Under the pieces are notes generated by a model that worked only from the letters and a program-made list of their open reading frames with translations, made no database searches and had not been told where the DNA came from. A stretch of DNA of 31,970 nucleotides from Candidatus Woesearchaeota archaeon (GTDB lineage Archaea; Nanobdellota; Nanobdellia; SCGC-AAA011-G17; CAZHCT01): assembly GCA_964531355.1 (NCBI GenBank), contig CAZHCT010000002.1, positions 1 through 31,970 on the forward strand. Direction: 5' to 3'. The translations under genes were made by a program, and so were the position numbers. Every line of letters starts with the position of its first letter. Within the stretch, counting starts at the first letter, position 1. Of this stretch, positions 1-19,112 are shown in pieces.

Positions 1-499
1 TGTAAGATTCTATCAAGCGAGCATCAGCTGGAATTTTATCGCCTGTTTCAATAAATATAATATCACCTGGAACTAATTCAATTACATCTATTGTTTGTTT
101 TTTGCCATCTCTCAGAACTTCTGTTTTTAAGCTTGATAATTTTTTTAATGCCTGGATTGATTTTTCTGCTTTATACTCCTGCATAAAACCCAGAATTGCA
201 TTTGAAATCAAGATGAAGATTATTGCAATTGCTTCTGCAAAGTCAATTAATCTTGTATTTCCAGGGTTTTCATAGAGCGGAAGAATAATAGAGATTACAG
301 CTGCAATAATCAATATCCATATTAAAATATCTTTGAACTGGTTTAAGAATATTTTTAGAGGAACAAGTTTTTCTTTTTCTTTTATCTGATTCAATCCATA
401 TTGTTTTAACCTTCTAAGAAATTCTTTATTAGTTAAACCTTTTTCAGAACTATCTAATTCCTTAAATACCTCTTTTATTTCTCTCTGGTAAAATTCCAT
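1..499 (-). CDS. P-type cation-transporting ATPase (type II-like), N-terminal part; runs off the window edge
   Basis: Not in ORF track. Manual translation from ATG at 499: MEFYQREIKEVFKELDSSEKGLTNKEFLRRLKQYGLNQI... two TM helices, GFMQEYKAEKSIQALKKL, and actuator motif LVPGDIIFIETGDKIPADARL. Confidence 0.95.
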   Translation of the reverse strand, partial: MEFYQREIKEVFKELDSSEKGLTNKEFLRRLKQYGLNQIKEKEKLVPLKIFLNQFKDILIWILIIAAVISIILPLYENPGNTRLIDFAEAIAIIFILISNAILGFMQEYKAEKSIQALKKLSSLKTEVLRDGKKQTIDVIELVPGDIIFIETGDKIPADARLIESY

Positions 500-515
500 T
501 AATATTTAAGTTAAA

Positions 516-536
516 AATAGAATATTTAATGTTTTC
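516..536. repeat. 21-bp direct repeat, copy 1 (AATAGAATATTTAATGTTTTC)
   Basis: Exact match to 1239-1259. Contains a minus-strand TATA-like ATTAAATA (523-530) 23 nt upstream of the ATPase ATG. Confidence 0.95.
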
Positions 537-544
537 GCTTGAGT

Positions 545-874
545 TTATATTGTAATTTTTAATTTCTGTTTGTTAATTTCTTGATCCATAAATTTTTTAG
601 AGATAGCTAAGTCTAAATCCATTAATTTTTTTACTAGTTGGTTATTCAGATTTAGTTTGTATAGTTCTGCTCTTCCAATTCTTCTAGTTTTTATAACTAT
701 CTCTAGTTTTACAAGTTTATCCCAAAATAGGTGCAATGTACTCCAACCAATATCTGCATTTTTTGCAATATTTGTTAAGCTGTAATCAAATTCCCTATTG
801 TCTAGAAAGAAATCTATAACTTTTACTATTGGAGAATCTCCAAATACTAGCCTAAAGGATGATTTTTCTTCCAT
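545..874 (-). CDS. Small winged-helix (ArsR-like) DNA-binding protein
   Basis: FGDSPIVKVIDFF...YSLTNIAKNADIGWSTLHLFWDKLVKLEIVIKTRRIGRAELYKLN gives HTH plus wing; TATA-like box about 25 nt upstream. Confidence 0.8.
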   Translation of the reverse strand: MEEKSSFRLVFGDSPIVKVIDFFLDNREFDYSLTNIAKNADIGWSTLHLFWDKLVKLEIVIKTRRIGRAELYKLNLNNQLVKKLMDLDLAISKKFMDQEINKQKLKITI

Positions 875-974
875 TGTAATGTATGATAATATTAGCTTAT
901 TTATATACTTTTTGGTATTTAAACATTCATAAATCTGAATAAAAGCTTAAAAATATAGGAGTATTAATAATAAT

Positions 975-1214
975 ATGAATTTAAGAGAAATTATTTTGAG
1001 GAAATTATACAGACGCAGGATAATTGGCGGAAAGCATACTGCAATAGAAAATTTAACAAAAAGTTTGCCAAAGCATATGATAGGGAAAGCAAGAGATGTT
1101 GTTAATGAACTGATTAAAGAAAGGTTTATCTTAGCAAAACCAACTTCTTATGGATTACAGGTTAGTTTAAATCCTGAAAGAATTAACGAAATTTGTAAAA
1201 TTATCGGAGAATAA
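975..1214 (+). CDS. Small basic hypothetical protein, possible winged-helix fold
   Basis: 79-aa ORF divergent from the 109-aa wHTH gene; helix-helix-hairpin pattern AIENLTKSLP...ARDVVNELIKERFILAKPTSYGLQVSLN. Confidence 0.7.
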   Translation: MNLREIILRKLYRRRIIGGKHTAIENLTKSLPKHMIGKARDVVNELIKERFILAKPTSYGLQVSLNPERINEICKIIGE

Positions 1215-1238
1215 TTTAGATTAACTATTCTACTAACC

Positions 1239-1259
1239 AATAGAATATTTAATGTTTTC
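1239..1259. repeat. 21-bp direct repeat, copy 2
   Basis: Exact match to 516-536; lies 2 nt from the stop codon of the 127-aa gene (1262). Confidence 0.95.
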
Positions 1260-1261
1260 AA

Positions 1262-1645
1262 TTACAGAATAAATTTTTCTGTTTTTAATTGGTCATACAG
1301 ATGCATATAATCTGGAGCAGAAGACATATGCTTTAACTTTAATGCATTTCTCCTTAATTTTTCAAAGAAATTGAATATTTTTTCCTTTACATCTTCTTCA
1401 TCTTCAATCCTTATTATTTGAATGCTGTCCAAAATATCATCTGTTTCATAAGTTACATCTGCGCTTCTTTTAACTCTCTTGATTATCTGATCGGCTAGGT
1501 AATCTGAAACTATTTCCCTGCATTCCTGGGTTAATTCTGCCAACTTATTGTCTATATCATAAAGAACGCGGAATTTTATTATATTTTCATTTGGAGCAAA
1601 GTTAACTACTTCGATTTTTTTAATTTTCAAGATAGTTTTTTTCAT
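1262..1645 (-). CDS. Hypothetical protein
   Basis: 127-aa ORF, 4-nt overlap with the upstream gene, normal composition; no recognised motif. Confidence 0.7.
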   Translation of the reverse strand: MKKTILKIKKIEVVNFAPNENIIKFRVLYDIDNKLAELTQECREIVSDYLADQIIKRVKRSADVTYETDDILDSIQIIRIEDEEDVKEKIFNFFEKLRRNALKLKHMSSAPDYMHLYDQLKTEKFIL

Positions 1646-1935
1646 ACATATTCACCGGTTTTTCTAAGTTTTTTATCTATTTCCCTTAATCTTGACATTG
1701 GTTTTATTGTAAGATATCCTCCGATTAAAAATAGGATAATGCAAACAACAATCAGAGAAGTGAACATGTAAGGGATTTCTTTTATATTATAATATTTTGA
1801 TGTTGCCACTAACAGCGTTATTATTGATAATGGGAGAATCAATGTTGTTATGCCTGTTCTGAATTCTGATAGAACTGTGCGTTTTTCAGACAATAAAGTC
1901 ATTATTTTTTCTTGCTTAATTGATTGGCTTGGCAT
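1642..1935 (-). CDS. DUF202/YidH-like small membrane protein
   Basis: LSEKRTVLSEFRTG resembles the DUF202 ERTxLxxxRT motif and is followed by two hydrophobic helices. Confidence 0.65.
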   Translation of the reverse strand: MPSQSIKQEKIMTLLSEKRTVLSEFRTGITTLILPLSIITLLVATSKYYNIKEIPYMFTSLIVVCIILFLIGGYLTIKPMSRLREIDKKLRKTGEYV

Positions 1936-1998
1936 ATTCTTTTTATGATTGAGTTATATTTAAAACTTTCTTTAGATTATGCGTAATTGTTTTTGCTT

Positions 1999-2175
1999 CT
2001 AAAGTTTTTTAATCTCTTTAGAACCTTGCCATTTACCTATTTTAGATCTTATGAAGTTTTGTATTCTTATTGCAGAATCAATCCTATTTGTTTCTCTTAA
2101 TTTAGCGCCAACTAATATTAACATTCTTTTTTCAGATAAATTTAAGCTATCTATTTGTCTTTCTTGGGTTGCCAT
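1999..2175 (-). CDS. Small hypothetical protein (58 aa), below ORF-track cutoff
   Basis: Manual translation MATQERQIDSLNLSEKRMLILVGAKLRETNRIDSAIRIQNFIRSKIGKWQGSKEIKKL; starts 7 nt after the 2183 stop and fills an otherwise empty gap. Confidence 0.5.
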   Translation of the reverse strand: MATQERQIDSLNLSEKRMLILVGAKLRETNRIDSAIRIQNFIRSKIGKWQGSKEIKKL

Positions 2176-2182
2176 ATTATTT

Positions 2183-2803
2183 TTAATCTTTAGCAGTATT
2201 TAAAACTTTCTTCTTTATTACAAAGCTCAGGATTATCAGAAGTGTAGATATTATTGCTGTGTATGTAAAGATTTTTCTTGCTATATCTTTGAAGATTTGC
2301 TCTGGGAAAAGCAGGATTAACTTGTCTTCTAAAGGATTTAACATCCAAAGATCATTATTAAAGAATACAATATGAAATTTTATGAATAAATCTGAAAAAT
2401 TAATTATTGAAAGCAATATAAAAAGCAAGACTATGGATATTATTATCAATCCTGAATAAAGAAATATTTTCTTGAATTCTGATTTATTTTTCCTGAATTG
2501 GATTATAATCAATGCCAATGCAATCAAAGACAGGGAATATAAAAGAATAAATGCATTTTGAATCAGGGATTTTACATCTTTTAGATGCAATTGCTCTTTT
2601 TGATTAAAATAGCTTAATTGTTCTTTGTTCTTTAAATAGTTTAATAAATTTTCAAGCATTGAATCTGCATTTTCTACTTTATCATAAATATTATATTTCT
2701 TGAATTCCTGCTTGTACATTGAAGAATCAAAAACAATCAACCTAAAACTCAATAAGATAATTATTAATGGAATCAAAATTATCAAGAATATTTTTGGTTT
2801 CAT
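2183..2803 (-). CDS. DUF1461/TIGR01906-like integral membrane protein
   Basis: Several TM helices and the motif FHIVFFNNDLWMLNPLEDKLILLFPEQIF. Confidence 0.8.
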   Translation of the reverse strand: MKPKIFLIILIPLIIILLSFRLIVFDSSMYKQEFKKYNIYDKVENADSMLENLLNYLKNKEQLSYFNQKEQLHLKDVKSLIQNAFILLYSLSLIALALIIIQFRKNKSEFKKIFLYSGLIIISIVLLFILLSIINFSDLFIKFHIVFFNNDLWMLNPLEDKLILLFPEQIFKDIARKIFTYTAIISTLLIILSFVIKKKVLNTAKD

Positions 2804-3354
2804 TTACATATGAATTCGCAAAAACTATTTCCTTTTGCAAGACATCTTGTTTCAACGCAGTCAATTTTTTTATTAAACAGATAAGAGAACATTCCTGCTA
2901 GAACAGCTGCATTAATTGTACAAGAATTTGTTTTAGATTTGCCTTGCTTAAGAGAAGCTTGAGCGATTGGACTTTCATAAACACGAATTACAGCTTGTTT
3001 TTTATCATTGTTTAAATCTACTACCTGCAATTTGCCTAATCCATAAACCTGGTAAATCTCTTCAATATTTTTTAATACTCCGCCCAAGCTAGAGCCTAAT
3101 TTTTTTCCGAATTCACTTATATCTGCAAATGAAACTTCTTTTAATACTTTGTATGCTTTAGAATGCATCAACTCAAGATTTTTTAATGTGCTTGTTTTTA
3201 TTATAGAATATATTTTACTTTGGTCAATGTTTTGAAGCTCCAAGACTGCATCATTGCTGAGCATAATATGTTTTTGCCCAAGAATTTCTATTTTTCCATC
3301 AATTAAAGAGAACTGCCTTGCAAATATCAACCTCTTTACAAAGTCTGAAATCAT
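2800..3354 (-). CDS. V4R (4-vinyl reductase) domain protein
   Basis: YGLGKLQV...ESPIA...C...AVLAGMFSYLFNKKIDCVETRCLAKGNSFCEF matches the V4R Cys pattern. Confidence 0.85.
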   Translation of the reverse strand: MISDFVKRLIFARQFSLIDGKIEILGQKHIMLSNDAVLELQNIDQSKIYSIIKTSTLKNLELMHSKAYKVLKEVSFADISEFGKKLGSSLGGVLKNIEEIYQVYGLGKLQVVDLNNDKKQAVIRVYESPIAQASLKQGKSKTNSCTINAAVLAGMFSYLFNKKIDCVETRCLAKGNSFCEFICK

Positions 3355-3408
3355 AGTATTTTAAAGATATTATTCGTATTTAAAGATTTCTTTTATTAAT
3401 TATCTTTT

Positions 3409-3942
3409 TTAGTATAATTTTCCTTCTTCTAGCACCATTAATCCTGGAAAATATCTAGTTAAGCCATGAAAGCGTTTGTTGTTATCTTTTTGATCATTAA
3501 ATTTCTCATTAATCTTTTTACATTCCTCTTCATCAAATTTTCCATCATTATTACCTAAATATTTGTCAAATAGATTTTCAAATCGAGTATAAACTTCTGG
3601 ACTGCTTAAAACTATGCATAATGAGTCAAATTCATCATTACTTGTCATATAATCTTCATTTCCAAATTTGTCAGCTAAACTACAAAACATTTTTTTACCG
3701 ATTTCAGCTTTTATTTCATAATTCTGCCTTTTAACAATTGCTTGAGGCTGGTCTGAAATGCTCATCATCCTATCTAAAGTTTTACCAATCATATCATATA
3801 TTTTATCTTCACTATAACCTGTTCTTTTTGATATTTTTTCTATTTCAATAGTATAATCTGGTGAACTACAAGCAAAATTTCCAAGAGCAAGAGTTCCTGT
3901 TAAAAAAATCCATGCCAACCTCTTTAATTTGTTTTTTATCAT
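3409..3942 (-). CDS. Predicted lipoprotein/secreted hypothetical protein
   Basis: Basic N-terminus, hydrophobic stretch and Cys (MIKNKLKRLAWIFLTGTLALGNFAC); TATA at 3964-3971. Confidence 0.65.
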   Translation of the reverse strand: MIKNKLKRLAWIFLTGTLALGNFACSSPDYTIEIEKISKRTGYSEDKIYDMIGKTLDRMMSISDQPQAIVKRQNYEIKAEIGKKMFCSLADKFGNEDYMTSNDEFDSLCIVLSSPEVYTRFENLFDKYLGNNDGKFDEEECKKINEKFNDQKDNNKRFHGLTRYFPGLMVLEEGKLY

Positions 3943-3963
3943 AAATAAGTGAATATTCTAATC

Positions 3964-4012
3964 TTTATAAAACCTTTTTTATAATGTAATAGTAGCACAA
4001 AACATTTAAATA
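3964..4012. promoter_or_regulatory. Divergent archaeal promoters (TTTATAAA 3964-3971 for the minus gene; TTTAAATA 4005-4012 for the KaiC-like gene)
   Basis: Each box lies 21-22 nt from its ATG, the spacing seen throughout the window. Confidence 0.6.
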
Positions 4013-4034
4013 GAATAAAAATGTAGGTTTAATA

Positions 4035-4721
4035 ATGAATGAGAGGGTATCTTCTGGGATAAATGGACTAGATCCTTTGATTAATGGGGGGTTTGTAAGC
4101 AATTCTATAAACTTAGTTACAGGCGGAGCAGGAGCTGGAAAAACAATATTTTTAGCTCATTTCCTGTATGATGGAGCTTTAAAGAATGAAAAGGGATTGT
4201 TTATTTCGTTTGAGCAGGATATAATAAGCGTAAAAAAGGATTTAGAGGGTTTTGGATTTAATTTTGACAAGCTTGAAAGCAAAGGATTAATAAAATTTAT
4301 TTATATGGGTCCTTACAAACAAAAAGATTTACAGGCTGAAATTCTTAAAGAGGTTAGCAAGTTTAAAGCTTCAAGAGTTGCAATAGATTCATTAAGCGTT
4401 TTTGCAATGTCCTTTAAAGATGAATATGAGATTAGAAGACAGATTTATACTTTAGGGAATTTATTGAACAGAATAAACTGCACTGTTATTGCTACTTCTG
4501 AAACGGTTGGAGAAGCTCCATTAGATGTCAGTTCTGGCGGAAGATTAACAAGATATGGCGTAGAAGAGTTTATTGCTGATTCTGTAATTACTCTGCATAA
4601 TGCTGGAATTGGAGGAGAAGCAGATAGAGCATTAAGAATTGTCAAGATGAGAAGGACAGCTCATGCTAGGGGAGTTGTACCAATGCAGATTACCAATAAA
4701 GGAATTGTTGTTAAAAAATAA
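4035..4721 (+). CDS. Single-domain KaiC/RAD55-like RecA-superfamily ATPase
   Basis: RVSSGINGLDPLINGGF, Walker A GGAGAGKT, Walker B RVAIDSLS, EEFIADSVITL, RALRIVKMRRTAH. Confidence 0.92.
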   Translation: MNERVSSGINGLDPLINGGFVSNSINLVTGGAGAGKTIFLAHFLYDGALKNEKGLFISFEQDIISVKKDLEGFGFNFDKLESKGLIKFIYMGPYKQKDLQAEILKEVSKFKASRVAIDSLSVFAMSFKDEYEIRRQIYTLGNLLNRINCTVIATSETVGEAPLDVSSGGRLTRYGVEEFIADSVITLHNAGIGGEADRALRIVKMRRTAHARGVVPMQITNKGIVVKK

Positions 4722-4941
4722 TATCTTCTTTTGAATATCTCTTGGTTGGAAAGGTACATTGATTCTTATAATAGGGGCATTTTGATCTTATTTTTTCTGC
4801 TTGTTTTTTTGTCAATTCAGAATAAAAATCAAGTATGTTGCATTTTTTATTGTAAAAGAATGAACAAGGAAATATTCCCTTAGATACAGAATTAATGTGG
4901 GCATATAGTAGTCTTATTTCCAATCTTGTATTATTGTGCAT
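4711..4941 (-). CDS. Small Cys-containing hypothetical protein
   Basis: 76-aa ORF with 4 Cys, promoter-like AAAGCTTATA upstream, convergent with the KaiC-like gene. Confidence 0.5.
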   Translation of the reverse strand: MHNNTRLEIRLLYAHINSVSKGIFPCSFFYNKKCNILDFYSELTKKQAEKIRSKCPYYKNQCTFPTKRYSKEDIIF

Positions 4942-5004
4942 TTATAACAAAAAATCTTTTAGAATATAAGCTTTTTTATTAAGTAAAACAATCTTTGCAA
5001 TTGC

Positions 5005-5024
5005 TATTTTCTAGACTTAAAATA
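5005..5024. repeat. 20-bp direct repeat, copy 1 (TATTTTCTAGACTTAAAATA)
   Basis: Exact match to 5549-5568; has 6-bp inverted ends (TATTTT...AAAATA). Confidence 0.95.
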
Positions 5025-5038
5025 ATTTATTATTTTAT

Positions 5039-5269
5039 TTATTTTCTAAGCAATTTAAGAAAATCCTCTCTGCCTAATCCGCTTTGAGAGATTATGCTTA
5101 ATAATGTTCCTTTCGCAAGTTCTTTGTGCTTTGGAACAACTACAGTTATCTTTTGTTCTGGAATATTTTTGCATAAGATCATATGGCTTCCTGATTGCCT
5201 AGTCAATATAAATCCTGTCTTCTTTAGCACCTTTACTATTTCATCACCTGAAACAATGGGTAATTTCAT
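5039..5269 (-). CDS. hicA: HicA-family type II toxin (mRNA interferase)
   Basis: MKLPIVSGDEIVKVLKKTGF...RQSGSHMIL...VVVPKHKELAKGTLLSIISQSGL is a HicA signature. Confidence 0.92.
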   Translation of the reverse strand: MKLPIVSGDEIVKVLKKTGFILTRQSGSHMILCKNIPEQKITVVVPKHKELAKGTLLSIISQSGLGREDFLKLLRK

Positions 5270-5505
5270 AAGAATAATCTTGTAGCTATTGGAGGCAGAA
5301 GTTTTTCTTGTTCTTTAGGAAACTTTTCTGGACATTCTTCTAAGTAAAGATTAATTGCATCTTTTATGTTTTCTATTGCTTCTTCATAACTATAACCTTG
5401 ACTAGCAATTCCTAAATTTAAGCAATGAGCAACAAAAACTTTTTTTCCATTAATTATTTCTTCATTTACAGCTATGTCAAAAACTCCATTCATTTTTCTT
5501 TCCAT
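5266..5505 (-). CDS. hicB: Short HicB-family antitoxin without a C-terminal DNA-binding domain
   Basis: FVAHCLNLGIASQGYSYEEAIENIKDAINLYLE; 4-nt overlap with hicA; ATG at 5505 preferred over GTG at 5511. Confidence 0.88.
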   Translation of the reverse strand: MERKMNGVFDIAVNEEIINGKKVFVAHCLNLGIASQGYSYEEAIENIKDAINLYLEECPEKFPKEQEKLLPPIATRLFL

Positions 5506-5509
5506 ATAC

Positions 5510-5582
5510 ACTTAATTGTTTTATTTATTTATAAGCTTTATGGTGCATTATTTTCTAGACTTAAAATACTTAATTGTTTTAT
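5510..5582. repeat. 15-bp direct repeat ACTTAATTGTTTTAT (5510-5524 and 5568-5582) plus 20-bp repeat copy 2 (5549-5568)
   Basis: Exact matches read directly; 5549-5582 is the 3' end of the 116-aa gene. Confidence 0.9.
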
Positions 5583-5898
5583 CCAATGCTTTTCTGAATC
5601 TTAATGATTTTTTTTCATTGATAAATGCTGCTTCTATCTCTGGATTTTTGCTTATGACAATCTCAAGAAAACCATTTTTTTCAAACATAAACCTTTCATA
5701 GCACTTGTTGTTTATTATGTCAAATCCCATTGAATAGATTTTTTCCTTAAAGTATTTTTCAAGAATTTTCATGAATTTTTCCAATGAGCTCCATGCTTCA
5801 TGAGTTTTCTTCAACTTTTTATCCAGTTTTAACTCTTCTTTTACTGCAAAAGGCAGTATACTTCTTTTATCATTGAGTCTTATTGTGTATGATTTCAT
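5548..5898 (-). CDS. Hypothetical protein
   Basis: 116-aa ORF with TATA-like TTTATATT about 25 nt upstream; no recognised motif. Confidence 0.65.
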   Translation of the reverse strand: MKSYTIRLNDKRSILPFAVKEELKLDKKLKKTHEAWSSLEKFMKILEKYFKEKIYSMGFDIINNKCYERFMFEKNGFLEIVISKNPEIEAAFINEKKSLRFRKALDKTIKYFKSRK

Positions 5899-5963
5899 CT
5901 TTTATATATTATTTATTCAATAAATATAAACCTATTGTTTTTGATTTTTATATCATCTTGCTC

Positions 5964-6001
5964 TTACCCTCTACATCTTAAAATTAGATTGTAAAGGGTA
6001 A
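5964..6001. repeat. 38-bp palindromic site TTACCCTCTACA-N14-TGTAAAGGGTAA at the Fic 3' end
   Basis: 12-bp inverted arms with one mismatch; partner site at 7033-7070. Confidence 0.95.
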
Positions 6002-6002
6002 A

Positions 6003-7001
6003 TTAAAGGAATATGCTCCAATAGGAATCTATCATCTCTTGCGAGATAAATTGAATTAATCCAAAGTAATCCTCTCTTGGGGATTGGGTAAGCGGACTTT
6101 TATCGGATCTTCTAAGCTGATTTAAGTATTCTGCTCTTCTTTTTTTGTATATTACCAGCGGCGGATATCCATTTTTCATCAAGATAAAATTCAAGAGCAT
6201 TCTTCCTGTTCTTCCATTGCCATCCATAAATGGATGTATCTTTTCTATTTTATGATGAAAGATAGAGGCTAAAGCTATCGGATGAAGCTTTTTTTTATTC
6301 TGTTCATACCATCTTAGCAATAGGTCCATATCTGTTTTAACATAGGGGGCTGGCGTTGCATCAAAATTAGACCTTAAAACTCTTACATCAGCATTTCTAT
6401 ATCCTTTTCTTTGGTCTATATTTTCTGTTAGATCAGAATGAACTTTAATTATAAGCTCATGGTTTATTTCTTCATTGCATTTTATTAAATCTAAAAAAAC
6501 TCTTTCTGTGTTTTGCAAATCATAAATTTCTCTTAATGTTTTATTCTTGGGGGTAAGGCCTTCTTCTAATAGGTTTGCTGCTTCTTTTAGCGTTATTGTG
6601 TTTCCTTCTATAGATGCTGTGTTAAATGCAAATTCTATTATAAAATACTTAAATATTTCTTTTTTTCCGAGATTATCTTTTTTTAAAAAAACATTATTAT
6701 AATGCAATTTACAGGCTTCTACTTCAATAAGCTTTTTATCCAGAAACTGGTCTTTTTTAAGCTTCAACGAAGCAGCCTTTTCCAGAAAATGATTTGATTC
6801 TATAAAGGAGTTAATAGTTTTGTAGGCTTTTCTTATTTGTTTTTTATATTTCTTCAGCTTGCTCATAGATTTCCTTACTTCTTCTATGGAACTGCCTAAG
6901 TAAGCAATGTCTTTAACCATTATTTTATTTTTTATTCTTTCAGAAGCTCTGAGGTAATAATAAGGTTTTCCGCTGACGATTTTTTTGTATATATAAACCA
7001 T
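6003..7001 (-). CDS. Fic-domain protein with an N-terminal extension
   Basis: Complete catalytic motif HPFMDGNGRTGR; FAFNTASIEGNTITL; N-terminal beta-rich YIYKKIVSGKPYYYLRASER segment. Confidence 0.95.
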   Translation of the reverse strand: MVYIYKKIVSGKPYYYLRASERIKNKIMVKDIAYLGSSIEEVRKSMSKLKKYKKQIRKAYKTINSFIESNHFLEKAASLKLKKDQFLDKKLIEVEACKLHYNNVFLKKDNLGKKEIFKYFIIEFAFNTASIEGNTITLKEAANLLEEGLTPKNKTLREIYDLQNTERVFLDLIKCNEEINHELIIKVHSDLTENIDQRKGYRNADVRVLRSNFDATPAPYVKTDMDLLLRWYEQNKKKLHPIALASIFHHKIEKIHPFMDGNGRTGRMLLNFILMKNGYPPLVIYKKRRAEYLNQLRRSDKSPLTQSPREDYFGLIQFISQEMIDSYWSIFL

Positions 7002-7032
7002 AATTAAGATGAGTAATCTCTATTTATAAACT

Positions 7033-7070
7033 TTACCCTTTACATTAATAAATTAAATTGTAGAGGGTAA
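7033..7070. repeat. 38-bp palindromic site TTACCCTTTACA-N14-TGTAGAGGGTAA upstream of Fic
   Basis: Same 12-14-12 architecture as 5964-6001; abuts the Fic TATA box (7023-7030) and the stop codon of the 710-aa gene (7071). Confidence 0.95.
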
Positions 7071-9203
7071 TCAAATTTTTCTATGCTTTAATTTATATGC
7101 AATAGATGGATGCTCTCTCCCTACTTTTATTGAATGAATCAACAAGTATTTTTCCTTTGTTTCTGGAAGTGAATGCTTTAATGAATTTTTCAATGCATGA
7201 GCGAATTTTTTAGCCCGTTTTTTATATATGAAATGAGCTACCAATGTCAATGGCTTGTTTTCTATTACATCAATAAACCCATCTTTTTTGAAGATATATT
7301 TATTCCTATTTTCTTCTTCTGAATGTATATGAGTTATCGGCTCTCTGAAATTATGCTCTGTTGTTTTTATCAAGCTGCTTTCATTTATTAATGAGTTTAA
7401 GTCTATCAAATAAACATAATAATGCTTGAATCTTAATAACATAAATGGAATTAATAATGCCAATAATAATGGCCATAATGAGAATATAATTCCTGTTGTG
7501 ATAATTACTGCACTGAATGTTAATATGTTTTTTGGTATTACTGGAATTGAAATTGGCTGCTCTTCTACAGGGCATTTTTTGCATCCATCTCCGCAATCTA
7601 CTCCTGTTTCAAAGCAGTCCTGTTTTGAGTTATTGCAATGATTATGACAATCTCCTTGGGTTAATGCTAGATATTGCTGCTTGCATTCTTCATCTGGTCT
7701 TGTGTATTTTTTAAAACATCCTCTTTCATAAACACATTCTTCTATTTCATCTTTAACACATTTTTTATATGCATAAGAGCATTCATTCTTGCAGACACAT
7801 TCTCCATTACTGCAGGTTTGGTATGTTTCACAGTAAATTCTATTACTCCAATATCTGCAGCCATCTGGATTTTGCAGGCAAGTATCATAAGCTTCATTAT
7901 CATAAGTGCATTTTTTCTCGTTTAAGGTGTTACAGCTGCTTGAGCAACCTGATGAACTACCACCTGAGCTTCCTCCACCTGAAGAACTGCTACCTGAAGA
8001 GGGGCATGCACCGCAATCTGATGAACAAGAAGAGCATAATTCTGTTCCTGAGCATAATCCACCACCGCAGGTGTTTATTGTAAATGTGAAGTTATTGTCA
8101 TAGAAATCTGTTTGGACTATTGTTGAATTGTCTGTACATTGAATATTCCATAAATATGTTCCATCTCTTAATGATGGGATTGTAATGTTGAATGTTTTGT
8201 TTGAGTAATTGTAGTTTATATCTCTTGAATTGTTAGCTAACCAAGAACCTGAGAAATTTGCGTATAAAGTGCAGTTTACTACTAAATAATCATCTTCTAC
8301 TGTAAAGTTGAAGTCTATTGGGGAAGAGGTTATTGATGATGCATTTAATGGGTAAGTTAAGTTTGAGACGTTTGGAGGATTGTCTTGTGTTAATGTTAAT
8401 ATTACATCCTTGTTTCCAGAGCCTATTAATATTGATGAGTTTACTGCTCTGAAATTTCCTATTGTTGCATTTACAGAATATGTTGCATAATATGCTGTTC
8501 CTGATGCTGTATCATTTGTGTATTCTGTTGCATTGAAGATTGCATGACCTGATGAATTTGTTGTTAATGTGTAAGTTGCTGAGGTTGAGTTAAATGCTAT
8601 AACTGTTGCTCCATTTACATTTGTTCCATTTGTGTAATTTACTTTTGTTCTTATATACCATTGTCTTGTGTAGTTTGATGAGGTTGTGAAGTTTATTTTT
8701 GAGTAGTTTACGTTTAATAATGTTATATTAATTGATTTTGTTATTTTGATGTCATTATTTGTGCTTGCGCTTATGTTTGAATTCCATATTAATGTGTTAT
8801 TTGCCGAGTATAAATGGATTCCTTCTGTTGTGAAAGAGGTTATTCTGCAGTTTCTTATGTTCATATTTGAGTTTATGCTTGTTATGTTCATTCCAAAACC
8901 TGCTGAACCTCCTCCTGTTATTGTGTTGTCTTGGCAGTTTAGTTCTGTGTTTGCTGCGTTGAAGATGGCACCGTTTGCAGCAAGTATAGAGTCACAGTCA
9001 ATCGTTCCGATAATATCATAATAACCTGTTCCTTTTGTTTGATCACAATATCCTGCTGCATTTAATGTTGTTAATCCGGTTATACTTGGTTTTAAAAAAA
9101 ACTCTTTTATAATTCCAAAGCCAAATAATATAATAATAAGTAACAGTAAGAATGGAATAAGTTCAAATTTCTTTTTAATACTATTTACACCTTTTTTAAA
9201 CAT
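7071..9203 (-). CDS. Large cell-surface protein (N-terminal TM/signal, beta-helix, Ig-like domains, Ser/Gly linker, Cys-rich repeats, C-terminal TM)
   Basis: Hydrophobic N-terminus then SITGL; Asn/Thr-rich with many N-x-S/T sequons; CGGGLCSGTELCSSCSSDCGAC; SSGSSSSGGGSSGGSSSG; ETGVDCGDGCKKC; TM segment before a cytoplasmic tail. Confidence 0.8.
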   Translation of the reverse strand: MFKKGVNSIKKKFELIPFLLLLIIILFGFGIIKEFFLKPSITGLTTLNAAGYCDQTKGTGYYDIIGTIDCDSILAANGAIFNAANTELNCQDNTITGGGSAGFGMNITSINSNMNIRNCRITSFTTEGIHLYSANNTLIWNSNISASTNNDIKITKSINITLLNVNYSKINFTTSSNYTRQWYIRTKVNYTNGTNVNGATVIAFNSTSATYTLTTNSSGHAIFNATEYTNDTASGTAYYATYSVNATIGNFRAVNSSILIGSGNKDVILTLTQDNPPNVSNLTYPLNASSITSSPIDFNFTVEDDYLVVNCTLYANFSGSWLANNSRDINYNYSNKTFNITIPSLRDGTYLWNIQCTDNSTIVQTDFYDNNFTFTINTCGGGLCSGTELCSSCSSDCGACPSSGSSSSGGGSSGGSSSGCSSSCNTLNEKKCTYDNEAYDTCLQNPDGCRYWSNRIYCETYQTCSNGECVCKNECSYAYKKCVKDEIEECVYERGCFKKYTRPDEECKQQYLALTQGDCHNHCNNSKQDCFETGVDCGDGCKKCPVEEQPISIPVIPKNILTFSAVIITTGIIFSLWPLLLALLIPFMLLRFKHYYVYLIDLNSLINESSLIKTTEHNFREPITHIHSEEENRNKYIFKKDGFIDVIENKPLTLVAHFIYKKRAKKFAHALKNSLKHSLPETKEKYLLIHSIKVGREHPSIAYKLKHRKI

Positions 9204-9251
9204 AAAAAAGATTAGTTATATTGTATATATAAAATTATTGTTAGTCTTAAA

Positions 9252-10124
9252 TCATTGTGATGTTGGATCGGGGAATACGTTATTTCCGGTTGATGACCAT
9301 TTTGAATCTTCTCTCCATTCTACATCCCCTCCTATATGCAGAATATTTCCTCCACCTTTAAGATTTCTCTTCGCAAGGTGATTTGCTATAGTCCTCTGCC
9401 CTGCTGTTCCTTCCCCATTTTCTAGTCCTGCATACCAATCGTATACAATAGGAAATCTACTATCCACTAGAAAGCCATTAATGACCTGCCCACCATTTCT
9501 TACTATTTGTACATCAAATGAATCAATATAAGACATTCTTGGTTGATTATCATTATAACCCGGAGTAGCTATTACAATTGTTGTTGGTTTTTTAGTTTCT
9601 TTATCTGCAGGACATCTAAAAGTTCCTGGTGTATCTATATAACCCCCTATGTAAATTAATCCTAAGGAAGCCACATTTAATGGTGATTCATAAAAAGGAT
9701 AATTTCCATCATAATCTAACATATATCTAGTTAAAGCTCCTCCAATATTCTTGAGATTAAAAGCACAACCAGCTCTATTTCCTTTTTCTATTGCTTCCCC
9801 TACTGGACCGGCTAATAATGCGGCAAGTATACCAATAATAGCCACAACAACAAGCAACTCAATCAATGTAAATCCTTTTCCGCCTGTTTTTTGAAATCTA
9901 TCAACTAATTCTTGATTTTTTTCATTGCTAAATCTAGATGTTATATCTGATGTTTCTTTGGGATCTAATTTACTAGCATAATTAACTGCCTCATTAAAAT
10001 TATTTCTAAACAGATATTTTTGAACTTTCTTAGCTACATTATAAAACTGAGAACTTAGATTAGGATATTCTCTATTCATAACTTCATTTATTGGCGTATT
10101 TAGCGCTATTGCTTCTAGTGACAT
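9252..10124 (-). CDS. Prepilin-type N-terminal cleavage/methylation domain protein (DUF1559/H-X9-DG-like) with an 84-aa leader
   Basis: GGKG|[20 protein letters not shown] at aa 84/85 with E5; [24 protein letters not shown]; C-terminal NH...[14 protein letters not shown]. Confidence 0.85.
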
Positions 10125-17656: not shown

Positions 17657-18364
17657 ATGCAATTAAGCAAACTTGAGAATAGGGTTTATGAAGAACTGAA
17701 AAAGAACAAATTTATCGCATTTAAAATCAGAGATTTGAGCTTGCTGCTGAATCTAAGCAGAACAAAAGCTTACAATATTGTGAAGGCTCTTAAAAGAAAG
17801 CAGGCAATAGAGAGAATTGGGAAGAATTTTTTTGCACTAAGAGAAATGAATGATATTGTCATTGGCCAAACTATCCATTACCCTTCTTACCTTTCTTTCT
17901 GGTCTGCTTTGAACTATTACGGATTTTCTGACCAAACCCCAAAGAAAATATTTTTTGCCACAACAAAATATGCAAAGGAAATTAATAATTTTAAATATGT
18001 AACATTATCAAAGAAAAGATTTTTTGGCTATGAAAGAATAGGAGAATTAACAATTGCGGAAAAAGAAAAGGCGATTATAGACTCTTTGCTATTCCCAAAA
18101 TATTCCGGGGGAATCAGAGAAATAAACGCGGTTTTAAGAACAGGTTTGAAACAGATAAATATTAAAAGATTGATAAATTATGCCTTTAAAGTTGAGAGCA
18201 AAGCAGTTTTAAGAAGACTTGGTTTCATTCTTGAAACACTAAATTATAAAAAAGAGTTAAAAAAGATAAGAGAAAACATAGGCAGGGGCTATGAATTGCT
18301 AGATCCCGCTTTAAAAAGAAAAAATAATTTAAATAAAAAATGGCTTTTAGATGTGAACTGGTAA
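17657..18364 (+). CDS. abiEi: AbiEi-like type IV antitoxin / transcriptional regulator
   Basis: N-terminal wHTH; YPSYLSFWSALNYYGFSDQTP; AEKEKAIIDSL; RRLGFILE. Confidence 0.85.
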   Translation: MQLSKLENRVYEELKKNKFIAFKIRDLSLLLNLSRTKAYNIVKALKRKQAIERIGKNFFALREMNDIVIGQTIHYPSYLSFWSALNYYGFSDQTPKKIFFATTKYAKEINNFKYVTLSKKRFFGYERIGELTIAEKEKAIIDSLLFPKYSGGIREINAVLRTGLKQINIKRLINYAFKVESKAVLRRLGFILETLNYKKELKKIRENIGRGYELLDPALKRKNNLNKKWLLDVNW

Positions 18365-18365
18365 A

Positions 18366-19112
18366 ATGATCCTAATAGAAGAGCTTAATCAAATTAAAGA
18401 AGCAAAAAAGACAAATTCATACTATGAAGAAAAGGAATACCTGCAATATATTTTTCTTAATGCTATTTCTAAATATCCCGATAATTTTGTCTTTAAGGGG
18501 GGAACATGCTTGAAAATATGTTTTGGTCTTGAAAGAGCATCAGAAGATTTAGACTTCAGCACCAGTTTTAAGATTGATAAACTTAAAGAAGTTGTTTATA
18601 AATGCTTAAAAGATTTTGAGTTGCTTAATATAAATTATGAGATTTATTCAGAAAGAGAGTTTGAAGGCAATTTAAGATTTGAGATTAGATTTAAAGGCCC
18701 TTTATTCCAAGGACATGCAAAATCAACAAACACCCTGAAGATAGATTTCAACAAAAGAAATGTTAAAAATAAAATAATTAAAGTTATCCAAAAATTGTTT
18801 TCTGATGTGCCTTTATTCAGCATAGTTGTTTTAGATGAAAAAGAGATTCTCGCGGAAAAAATAAGGGCTTTAATTAATAGAGCAGAATCAAGAGATTTAT
18901 ATGATATATGGATGCTCTTAAATAAAGGAATAAAAATAGACAGAAAGCTTTTAATTATAAAATTAAATGAGGAAAAAAGCAAATTTTCTAATTTAAGATT
19001 TCCTTCAAAAGAGGAATATGAAAGAGATTTAAAAAATTTAGTTAAGACACTGCCATCTTACGAGCAAGTAAAGAAAGAAGTTTCAAAAGAATTTGATAAG
19101 ATTGCGCATTAA
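18366..19112 (+). CDS. abiEii: AbiEii-family nucleotidyltransferase toxin
   Basis: FVFKGGTCL...RASEDLDF; EILAEKIRAL...RDLYDIW. Confidence 0.92.
   Translation: MILIEELNQIKEAKKTNSYYEEKEYLQYIFLNAISKYPDNFVFKGGTCLKICFGLERASEDLDFSTSFKIDKLKEVVYKCLKDFELLNINYEIYSEREFEGNLRFEIRFKGPLFQGHAKSTNTLKIDFNKRNVKNKIIKVIQKLFSDVPLFSIVVLDEKEILAEKIRALINRAESRDLYDIWMLLNKGIKIDRKLLIIKLNEEKSKFSNLRFPSKEEYERDLKNLVKTLPSYEQVKKEVSKEFDKIAH

Follow-up and report, generated by a model that had tools for sequence, protein, structure and literature searches.

Repeat-bounded toxin-antitoxin and defence modules in a very small archaeal genome

Three small gene modules lie close together on contig C2 (CAZHCT010000002.1) of a Candidatus Woesearchaeota archaeon, each between a pair of short repeats: a winged helix-turn-helix (wHTH) gene with a divergent partner (unit U1), a hicBA toxin-antitoxin (TA) pair (U2) and a gene for a Fic AMP-transferase (U3). 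The window we analysed is the whole contig, 31,970 bases, from a genome of 743 kb in 65 contigs that has ~28% G+C and is 89% complete. A preliminary description of this DNA had reported the three repeat pairs, had placed the units at gene ends or promoters with the neighbouring genes intact, and had noted that the hicBA and Fic units are stacked around a gene for a protein of 116 amino acids (aa). All three pairs lie where it had put them (Table 1), the first copy of the U1 repeat lies in the promoter region of a P-type ATPase gene, the U2 repeat is a copy of the last 34 nucleotides (nt) of the 116-aa gene, and the stacking is real, both here and on contig C39. It had also stated that the window contains no integrase or transposase, and our Pfam/domain search of all window open reading frames (ORFs) was indeed negative for both; its term "recombinase-free" applies to the window but not to the genome, which encodes two XerA-type tyrosine recombinases elsewhere. 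Rfam and tRNA scans over the window gave no matches.

Table 1. Repeats and genes of units U1-U3 in the window, and repeat-bounded units on other contigs of the same genome
Feature	Coordinates	Strand	Remarks
P-type ATPase gene, N-terminus	2-499	minus	
U1 repeat, copy 1	503-536 (exact core 516-536)		promoter region of the ATPase gene
wHTH DNA-binding protein gene, 109 aa	545-874	minus	Sso10a/AspA/MarR-like fold, long C-terminal helix; multi-copy family
Putative partner gene, 79 aa	975-1214	plus	divergent; accompanies the 109-aa gene in G037 and G094
U1 repeat, copy 2	1226-1259 (exact core 1239-1259)		2 nt past the stop of the 127-aa gene
U2 repeat, copy 1	5005-5038		displaced 3' end of the 116-aa gene; abuts the hicA stop
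hicA toxin gene, 76 aa	5039-5269	minus	PF07927, E 4.5e-18
hicB-like antitoxin gene	5266-5511	minus	weak DUF7387 match
Third, 15-nt copy of the U2 repeat's inner end	5511-5525		equals 5568-5582; just upstream of hicB
116-aa gene	5548-5898	minus	between the hicBA and Fic units
U2 repeat, copy 2	5549-5582		last 11 codons of the intact 116-aa gene
Palindrome P1	5964-6001		1 nt past the Fic stop, 65 nt upstream of the 116-aa gene
Fic AMP-transferase gene, 332 aa	6003-7001	minus	FICD-like class, internal inhibitory helix
Palindrome P2	7033-7070		abuts the Fic BRE/TATA box; 0 nt past the stop of the 710-aa gene
710-aa surface protein gene	7071-9203		
Second hicBA	C4		repeat of 99 nt, 95% identical
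AAA_14/DUF4143 ATPase	C4		repeat of 95 nt, includes a hicA 3' end
AbiEii and partner	C14		repeat of 31 nt
203-aa protein and MNT nucleotidyltransferase	C39		repeat is a gene 3' end
AAA_14/DUF4143 ATPase	C39		repeat is a gene 3' end
AAA_14/DUF4143 ATPase	C16		
AAA_14/DUF4143 ATPase, lone gene	C1:50042-51518 (L103 6043-7519)		repeat is a 41-nt tRNA 3' part

The U1 repeat is exact over 21 nt and can be extended to 34 nt at 28/34 identity (82%). Its first copy lies ~20-35 nt upstream of the ATPase start and contains a TATA-like run, and the two copies enclose just the 109-aa and 79-aa genes. The 109-aa protein, whose structural model (predicted local distance difference test score, pLDDT, 92.9) consists of a winged helix and a long C-terminal helix, has a weak match to the PADLOC entry PDC-M05A. 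For comparison we used relatives of the same order, every one from another family, with a sample of 150 genomes for order-wide comparisons; individual relatives are given by our G numbers. Nearly all of the DNA between the U1 repeats (558-1217) is 76% identical, spacer included, to copies of the pair in two of them, G037 (family f13) and G094 (family f15), where the genomic contexts are unrelated, and the 109-aa gene alone is retained in two f13 genomes.

The two copies of the U2 repeat are identical at 31 of 34 positions, 20 nt of them in one exact run, and the displaced copy retains the reading frame and stop codon of the 116-aa gene (...YFKSRK-stop). Between them hicA and hicB overlap by 4 nt, and the combination of a HicA domain with an upstream, overlapping HicB-type gene identifies the pair as HicAB, although the HicB match is weak. 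The true start of hicB is probably the ATG at 5505, and the gene has its own TATA-like promoter within 5512-5548. The 710-aa surface protein encoded on the other side of the Fic unit has a homologue of its cytoplasmic, C-terminal domain (~residues 610-680) in the 116-aa protein (27% identity over 70 residues, E 2e-7), and G017 and G025 encode homologues of 152-154 aa with matches to the two proteins alike.

The Fic unit is bounded differently, by two copies of a 38-nt palindrome of the design TTACCCTYTACA-N14-TGTARAGGGTAA (12-14-12). Its gene has a clear Pfam Fic domain (E 1.8e-21) and matches the defence candidates PDC-S04 and SoFic in PADLOC; the active-site motif HPFMDGNGRTGR is intact and alignment to a FICD homologue locates the inhibitory motif TASIEGN, so that both motifs of Fic proteins with an internal inhibitory helix, HPFx(D/E)GNGRxxR and (S/T)xxxE(G/N), are present. 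Orthologues are patchily distributed (~25/151 genomes), with identities up to 68% regardless of family. Each of the ~22 orthologous loci has a palindrome built in this way, which stops 2-4 nt short of the TATA box, in the position of the transcription factor B recognition element (BRE) ~31 nt before the ATG. The preliminary description had counted the Fic repeats, like the others, as boundary repeats; they are not a target duplication, and what we find instead is a conserved cis-element of the Fic module beside its promoter. The arms of the palindrome vary with the Fic subfamily (TTCCCC...GGGGAA in one of them), and in a distant subfamily of 36-46% identity (L213-L216, from G070, G022, G039 and G023) the palindrome is replaced by a 13-nt direct motif resembling TGTAATCCCTAAA, which flanks the TATA box on both sides and occurs twice more past the stop codon. 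Because the arms change with the Fic subfamily, as an operator would, and because the palindrome overlaps the BRE position of the Fic promoter, it is most likely a module-borne candidate operator of the repressor type.

The same palindrome may double as the recombination boundary of the module. Hints of such a role are the second copy that lies 1-7 nt past the Fic stop in 12/22 loci, the near or full identity of the copies within a genome, spacer included, while spacers differ between genomes, and the reciprocal swapping of arms in three genomes (the present one, G097 and G136). Further hints are the outer target repeats that surround the whole palindrome-Fic-palindrome block in G129, G136 and G126 (the one in G129 being a tRNA 3' fragment), an 83-nt repeat in G033 that ends in the palindrome and flanks other cargo, namely a wHTH gene, a small partner gene and a RelE-like toxin gene (so labelled by eye from its sequence, with no family search), and solitary palindromes that have no Fic beside them, such as the one that immediately follows a tRNA gene in G137. 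Fic units adjoin tRNA 3' ends in G129, G064 and G097, and in G014 a foreign, non-Xer tyrosine integrase gene (L013 5641-6609) lies in a G+C-richer segment 470 nt upstream of the Fic palindrome. Matches to the unit end exactly at 7070 in five other families and at 5964 in one, and its matches in other families have no common neighbour within 6 kb, except for the wHTH pair in G004. Residues 1-40 of the Fic protein contain a K-x-GK-x-YYYL...K...YLG motif that likewise opens a 3267-aa protein on contig C4 (C4:11137) and a Fic-like protein of G033; the motif may represent a small DNA-binding domain made of beta-sheet and a candidate reader of the palindrome. We considered and rejected homology between the 710-aa gene and the 700-aa gene lying upstream of Fic in G029.

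Repeats of this kind are not produced by chance in sequence of this composition. Exact direct repeats of at least 20 nt at a spacing of 150-2500 nt number 54 in the genome and 0 in each of five Markov-3 shuffles (most of the 54 sit inside repeat proteins on C4), the palindrome pattern did not occur in 100 shuffles, and the repeat sequences of U1, U2 and U3 are found nowhere else in the assembly. A hairpin structure shared by all the repeats was considered and rejected; just the palindromes fold.

The window is not the only part of the genome with such units. A filter for isolated repeats (at least 17 nt exact, no collinear paralogy, spanning whole ORFs, with cargo assigned by Pfam) returned about a dozen gene-spanning units genome-wide, ~10 of them beyond the window and 0.6-2 kb long. 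At least nine of the ~12 carry hicBA, AbiEii, MNT nucleotidyltransferase or AAA_14/DUF4143 cargo, the last of which matches PDC-S01, a defence candidate in PADLOC. A rough estimate of the probability of nine or more in 12, with such cargo taken to make up 10% of genes, is ~2e-7. Spanning repeats accompany about half of the genome's modules of this kind; the repeats are second copies of either promoters or the 3' ends of targets, a tRNA in one case, and in no unit of the genome is an integrase encoded. The clearest stacked array is on C39 (C39:1-6752; L108), where the 3' end of a plus-strand gene (...DYKDYATTLAGDKVTVKSETLS.ISLG-stop and a T-rich tail) is present four times, at ~78-198, 1512-1565, 2871-2983 and 4545-4647, and the intervals hold minus-strand cassettes of one or two genes, either the 203-aa protein with the MNT nucleotidyltransferase or AAA_14 ATPases. 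On C1 the duplicated tRNA (~C1:51477-51585, minus), which was missed by ARAGORN, probably carries an intron, and the ATPase unit is adjoined by a HicB-like gene, a second Fic gene and a second ATPase gene.

The claim that such repeats are enriched around TA and defence cargo relative to housekeeping genes was supported by the relatives. A direct repeat of 23-126 nt (local score at least 20) spans hicA at 8/27 usable loci, and spanning repeats occur at 13 of the 22 Fic loci, versus 0/27 for the ribosomal protein S8e control, in which the maximum score was 15 (shuffles ~12). In Fisher tests with S8e as the control, hicA reaches p = 0.004 and Fic p = 2e-6, values that overstate the contrast, as related genomes are not independent. 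The hicBA repeats of the relatives are again 3' ends or promoters of neighbouring genes, and five independent hicBA cassettes have the same geometry: the upstream repeat ends 43-112 nt before hicB, with a TATA box of the cassette's own in the gap, and the downstream repeat begins 0-25 nt past the hicA stop. In G136 the pair lies between two copies of a 26-nt terminator-like sequence (T26-hicA-hicB-T26), and in G120, of the same genus, both flanks are present at 78-82% identity around a single identical T26 with no cassette. A further comparison, of G089 with G136, shows a replacement of hicBA size without a clean repeat. It had been proposed that the modules are gained and lost singly, as discrete units. 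This is supported in kind because of the occupied/empty pair in the relatives, the enrichment and the homology limited to the units in unrelated contexts, although the occupied/empty pair concerns an analogous hicBA cassette and the units of the window were seen only occupied. The units behave as discrete, horizontally moving modules.

A major question arising from these observations is "What brought such modules to these sites?" The explanation we favour, to which we assign a probability of about 0.5, is trans-acting, Campbell-type integration of small cassettes. The wHTH pair, hicBA and Fic would be three independent, horizontally acquired defence/TA modules, each inserted as a unit of 0.5-1.1 kb at a gene junction. 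In U1 and U2 insertion would have duplicated a short stretch of the target, the ATPase promoter and the last 34 nt of the 116-aa gene, and so both neighbours would have stayed intact. The route we infer is a single crossover between the target stretch and its copy on a small circular cassette, with a tyrosine recombinase acting in trans, be it one of the host's XerA-type pair or an integrase on a passing virus or plasmid, and recurrent integration at the same kind of site would have led to stacking. The Fic unit would be bounded by its own 38-bp palindrome, which would mark the end of a mobile unit where it is repeated past the stop codon, as in about half of the orthologues. The host pair is encoded on C42 and C22; the two enzymes share 36% identity, and both pass the XerA model.

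Several findings weigh against this explanation. The cassettes carry no recombinase of their own, and in the genome (89% complete) we found no serine recombinase, Cas1, DDE_Tnp_1 transposase or TnpB. The length (20-126 nt) and sequence of the repeats vary by unit, which is awkward for a single site-specific enzyme, and the five hicBA cassettes have no conserved terminal motif. For U1-U3 there was no empty site, circular junction or strain variant, all Logan contigs found being occupied. Finally, the wHTH family, whose pair in the window the preliminary description had counted among the repeat-bounded cargo, did not prove to be enriched family-wide: spanning repeats occur at 2/28 loci, no different from the S8e control, and the copy in G037 has no flanking repeat apart from low-complexity A-runs.

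Could the units instead be fossils of larger integrated viruses or plasmids, whose own integrase made the repeats as att sites before a deletion bias spared only the addictive and defensive genes? We regard this as possible, if rather doubtful. The presence of tRNA and gene 3' ends among the repeats is what one expects of att sites, a non-Xer integrase gene does lie beside Fic in G014, and repeat pairs of 80% to 100% identity appear to differ in age. Less easily accommodated are five independent hicBA cassettes of the same tight geometry with no residual element DNA, the many loci that retain both repeat copies, and the clean empty site of G120.

Alternatively, no dedicated recombinase may have been involved: the repeats would recombine, a circle with one repeat would be excised, and the host's RadA and Mre11-Rad50 would reinsert it into related cells at this short sequence, the first insertion having been an illegitimate replication- or break-associated event that duplicated a variable stretch of target. 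Such a route would suit the variable lengths and sequences of the repeats, the lack of conserved cassette ends, a genome nearly devoid of recombinases, the presence of Mre11 and Rad50 genes in the window itself, and the short similarities between cassette end and target in U2 and in G136/G120. We nevertheless think it unlikely, in that 20-34 nt is a very short substrate for homologous recombination, the preference for tRNA and gene 3' ends is left unexplained and the primary event is undefined.

It is improbable that the repeats are simply cis-regulatory duplications (promoters, terminators or operators) of the neighbouring genes, unrelated to insertion. Much about the Fic palindrome would fit, as its place next to the TATA box is constant in ~22 loci and its form differs from one Fic subfamily to another, and several other repeats contain TATA boxes or terminator hairpins. 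We also observed a 49-nt repeat pair in the window (1924-1972 and 2164-2212; 80% identity, spacing 240 nt) that spans the promoter and first four codons of two small genes, for 97-aa and 58-aa proteins. The repeats of U2, C39, C1 and L143, however, are coding 3' ends or tRNA parts and not regulatory DNA, one repeat copy is present at the empty site, the spacers of palindrome pairs are identical within a genome and different between genomes, and outer target repeats enclose the palindrome-Fic-palindrome block in three relatives. Because the 49-nt repeat spans both gene starts, the 58-aa gene looks like a further small unit, with a duplicated promoter and start.

That the repeats are artefacts of metagenome assembly, made by threading strain variants, can be dismissed as very improbable because independent, single-run Logan contigs give the same junctions, and moreover the repeats are shorter than the overlap k and often imperfect and the pattern recurs in many genomes, closed ones among them, even though probable k-mer artefacts do exist in this assembly. 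These are exact 55-nt repeats at 155-nt spacing on four contigs (C1:14616/14771, C10:14842/14997, C24:10073/10228 and C25:5879/6034), which we consider probable products of an assembler run at k=55. The Logan contigs reproduce the junctions of the 79-aa gene, repeat and 127-aa gene, of the 116-aa gene, repeat and hicB, and of hicA, repeat and the neighbouring gene for another 76-aa protein at 99.5-100% identity; they span 827-2363, 4943-5869, 5156-6222 and 3053-5154, the last from a 99.5%-identical strain. An apparent variant end in one Logan contig was rejected, as it proved to be Nextera adapter. Exact-protein look-ups for the 76-aa, 109-aa and Fic proteins returned no matches, those for other proteins led to short contigs with the same sequence as the window, and a scan of Joint Genome Institute (JGI) metagenomes with the neighbouring KaiC found no match above 55% identity.

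The units have parallels among known systems. One is integrase-mediated gene capture and tandem accretion at att sites, as in archaeal elements at tRNA genes and in the cis-mobilizable elements (CIMEs) left by integrative and conjugative elements (ICEs) in Firmicutes. As there, the 3' end of a tRNA or protein gene is duplicated (the 116-aa gene in U2, the tRNA part on C1 and, four times over, the gene end on C39), the target stays intact, stacked units are split by the same site and none has a recombinase of its own. Unlike those, the units here are 0.5-1.7 kb, with one or two genes plus a promoter and no integrase fragments, the targets include promoters, and the repeats are 20-126 nt.

Integrons, which have reportedly been found in archaea (in a bioRxiv preprint), offer a second comparison. 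Small, single-function, TA-rich cassettes arranged in arrays and separated by repeats that resemble recombination sites are reminiscent of integron cassettes and of clusters of attC sites lacking integron-integrases (CALINs), and the Fic palindrome, like integron sites, is palindromic and more alike within than between genomes. There is, however, no IntI by the arrays: the window encodes no tyrosine recombinase, and the two genomic enzymes score 196 and 222 bits against an integron-integrase cut-off of 265. Nor do the palindrome arms (TTACCC...GGGTAA) fit the R''/R' consensus of attC sites (RYYYAAC...GTTRRRY). In addition, integron cassettes are promoterless, whereas those here have TATA boxes of their own and are found in both orientations; the repeats of U1 and U2 lack palindromic symmetry, and most repeats are copies of the target and not cassette-borne sites.

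The pdif modules of Acinetobacter plasmids are Xer-dependent and themselves free of recombinase genes. Like those modules, which carry TA or resistance genes, the units here are recombinase-free and have short boundary sites that could be used by a housekeeping Xer in trans, and the only recombinases of the genome are XerA-type. The Fic palindrome, with 12-nt arms and a spacer of 14 nt here (14-16 nt overall), differs from the 28-bp dif design of 11-nt arms and a 6-nt centre, and the remaining repeats are not palindromic or otherwise structured. DDE transposons and miniature inverted-repeat transposable elements (MITEs) provide no better match, as U1 and U2 lack terminal inverted repeats, the duplications vary in length from 20 to 126 nt and neither DDE_Tnp_1 nor TnpB was found in the genome. 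Finally, hicAB is said to have been first described as a small insert in a pilus gene region of Haemophilus; the hicBA units here are likewise tiny, sporadic inserts between conserved genes, but they differ in that the duplicated target stretch has defined limits, that there is a clean empty site and that the hosts are DPANN-like archaea. Literature searches on DUF4143, archaeal TA cassettes with direct repeats, hicAB repeats and DPANN mobile elements did not find the pattern described. We raise, tentatively and as something less than probable, a hitherto undescribed mobility of single defence/TA modules in DPANN-type archaea, in which bare cassettes (0.5-1.5 kb, one or two genes behind a promoter, neither conserved ends nor recombinase) insert by gene ends, promoters or hairpins, duplicate 20-126 bp of target and build integron-like stacks without an integron, the Fic palindrome being a dedicated boundary or recombination site.

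Little is understood of how TA and small defence modules move, which they plainly do although most lack a mobility gene. Very small archaeal genomes nearly devoid of recombinases here allow the limits of such modules to be placed with single-base precision, and the signature is reproducible: a duplicated target, uniform cassette geometry, stacking and, in one case, a clean empty site. The statement that TA modules are selfish and mobile can thereby be turned into a testable question about the enzyme or repair pathway responsible for inserting a bare cassette. Searching between isolated short direct repeats is also a simple route to new defence cargo, and the conserved palindrome of the Fic promoter is a ready candidate operator for an archaeal Fic/SoFic-type defence gene.

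The genes in positions 1-9,300 of the window are almost all on the minus strand, the plus-strand genes being those of the 79-aa partner and KaiC. With rising coordinates they encode the N-terminus of the P-type ATPase, the divergent 109-aa/79-aa pair, proteins of 127, 97 and 58 aa, Lit, V4R, a 177-aa protein, KaiC, the further 76-aa protein, HicA, HicB, the 116-aa protein, Fic and the 710-aa surface protein. The remainder of the window holds genes of nucleotide metabolism, an AbiEi/AbiEii pair, RNase J, Mre11-Rad50 and an SNF2-methyltransferase operon. The pair (17657-19112), in which the AbiEi-like protein is a TrmB-type wHTH protein, abuts the RNase J start, and its best flanking-repeat score of 12 amounts to no repeat. 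Positions 1-55 of the window are the same as C63:4592-4646, an overlap of 55 nt that makes C63 and C2 adjacent, with the ATPase gene running on into C63. A co-occurring strain in run SRR12113420 (L116) is identical over 2 kb and has third-codon-position differences clustered at both ends of its contig, at window positions 3079-3106 in the V4R gene and 5114-5147 inside hicA, which we read as signs of mosaic strain variation.

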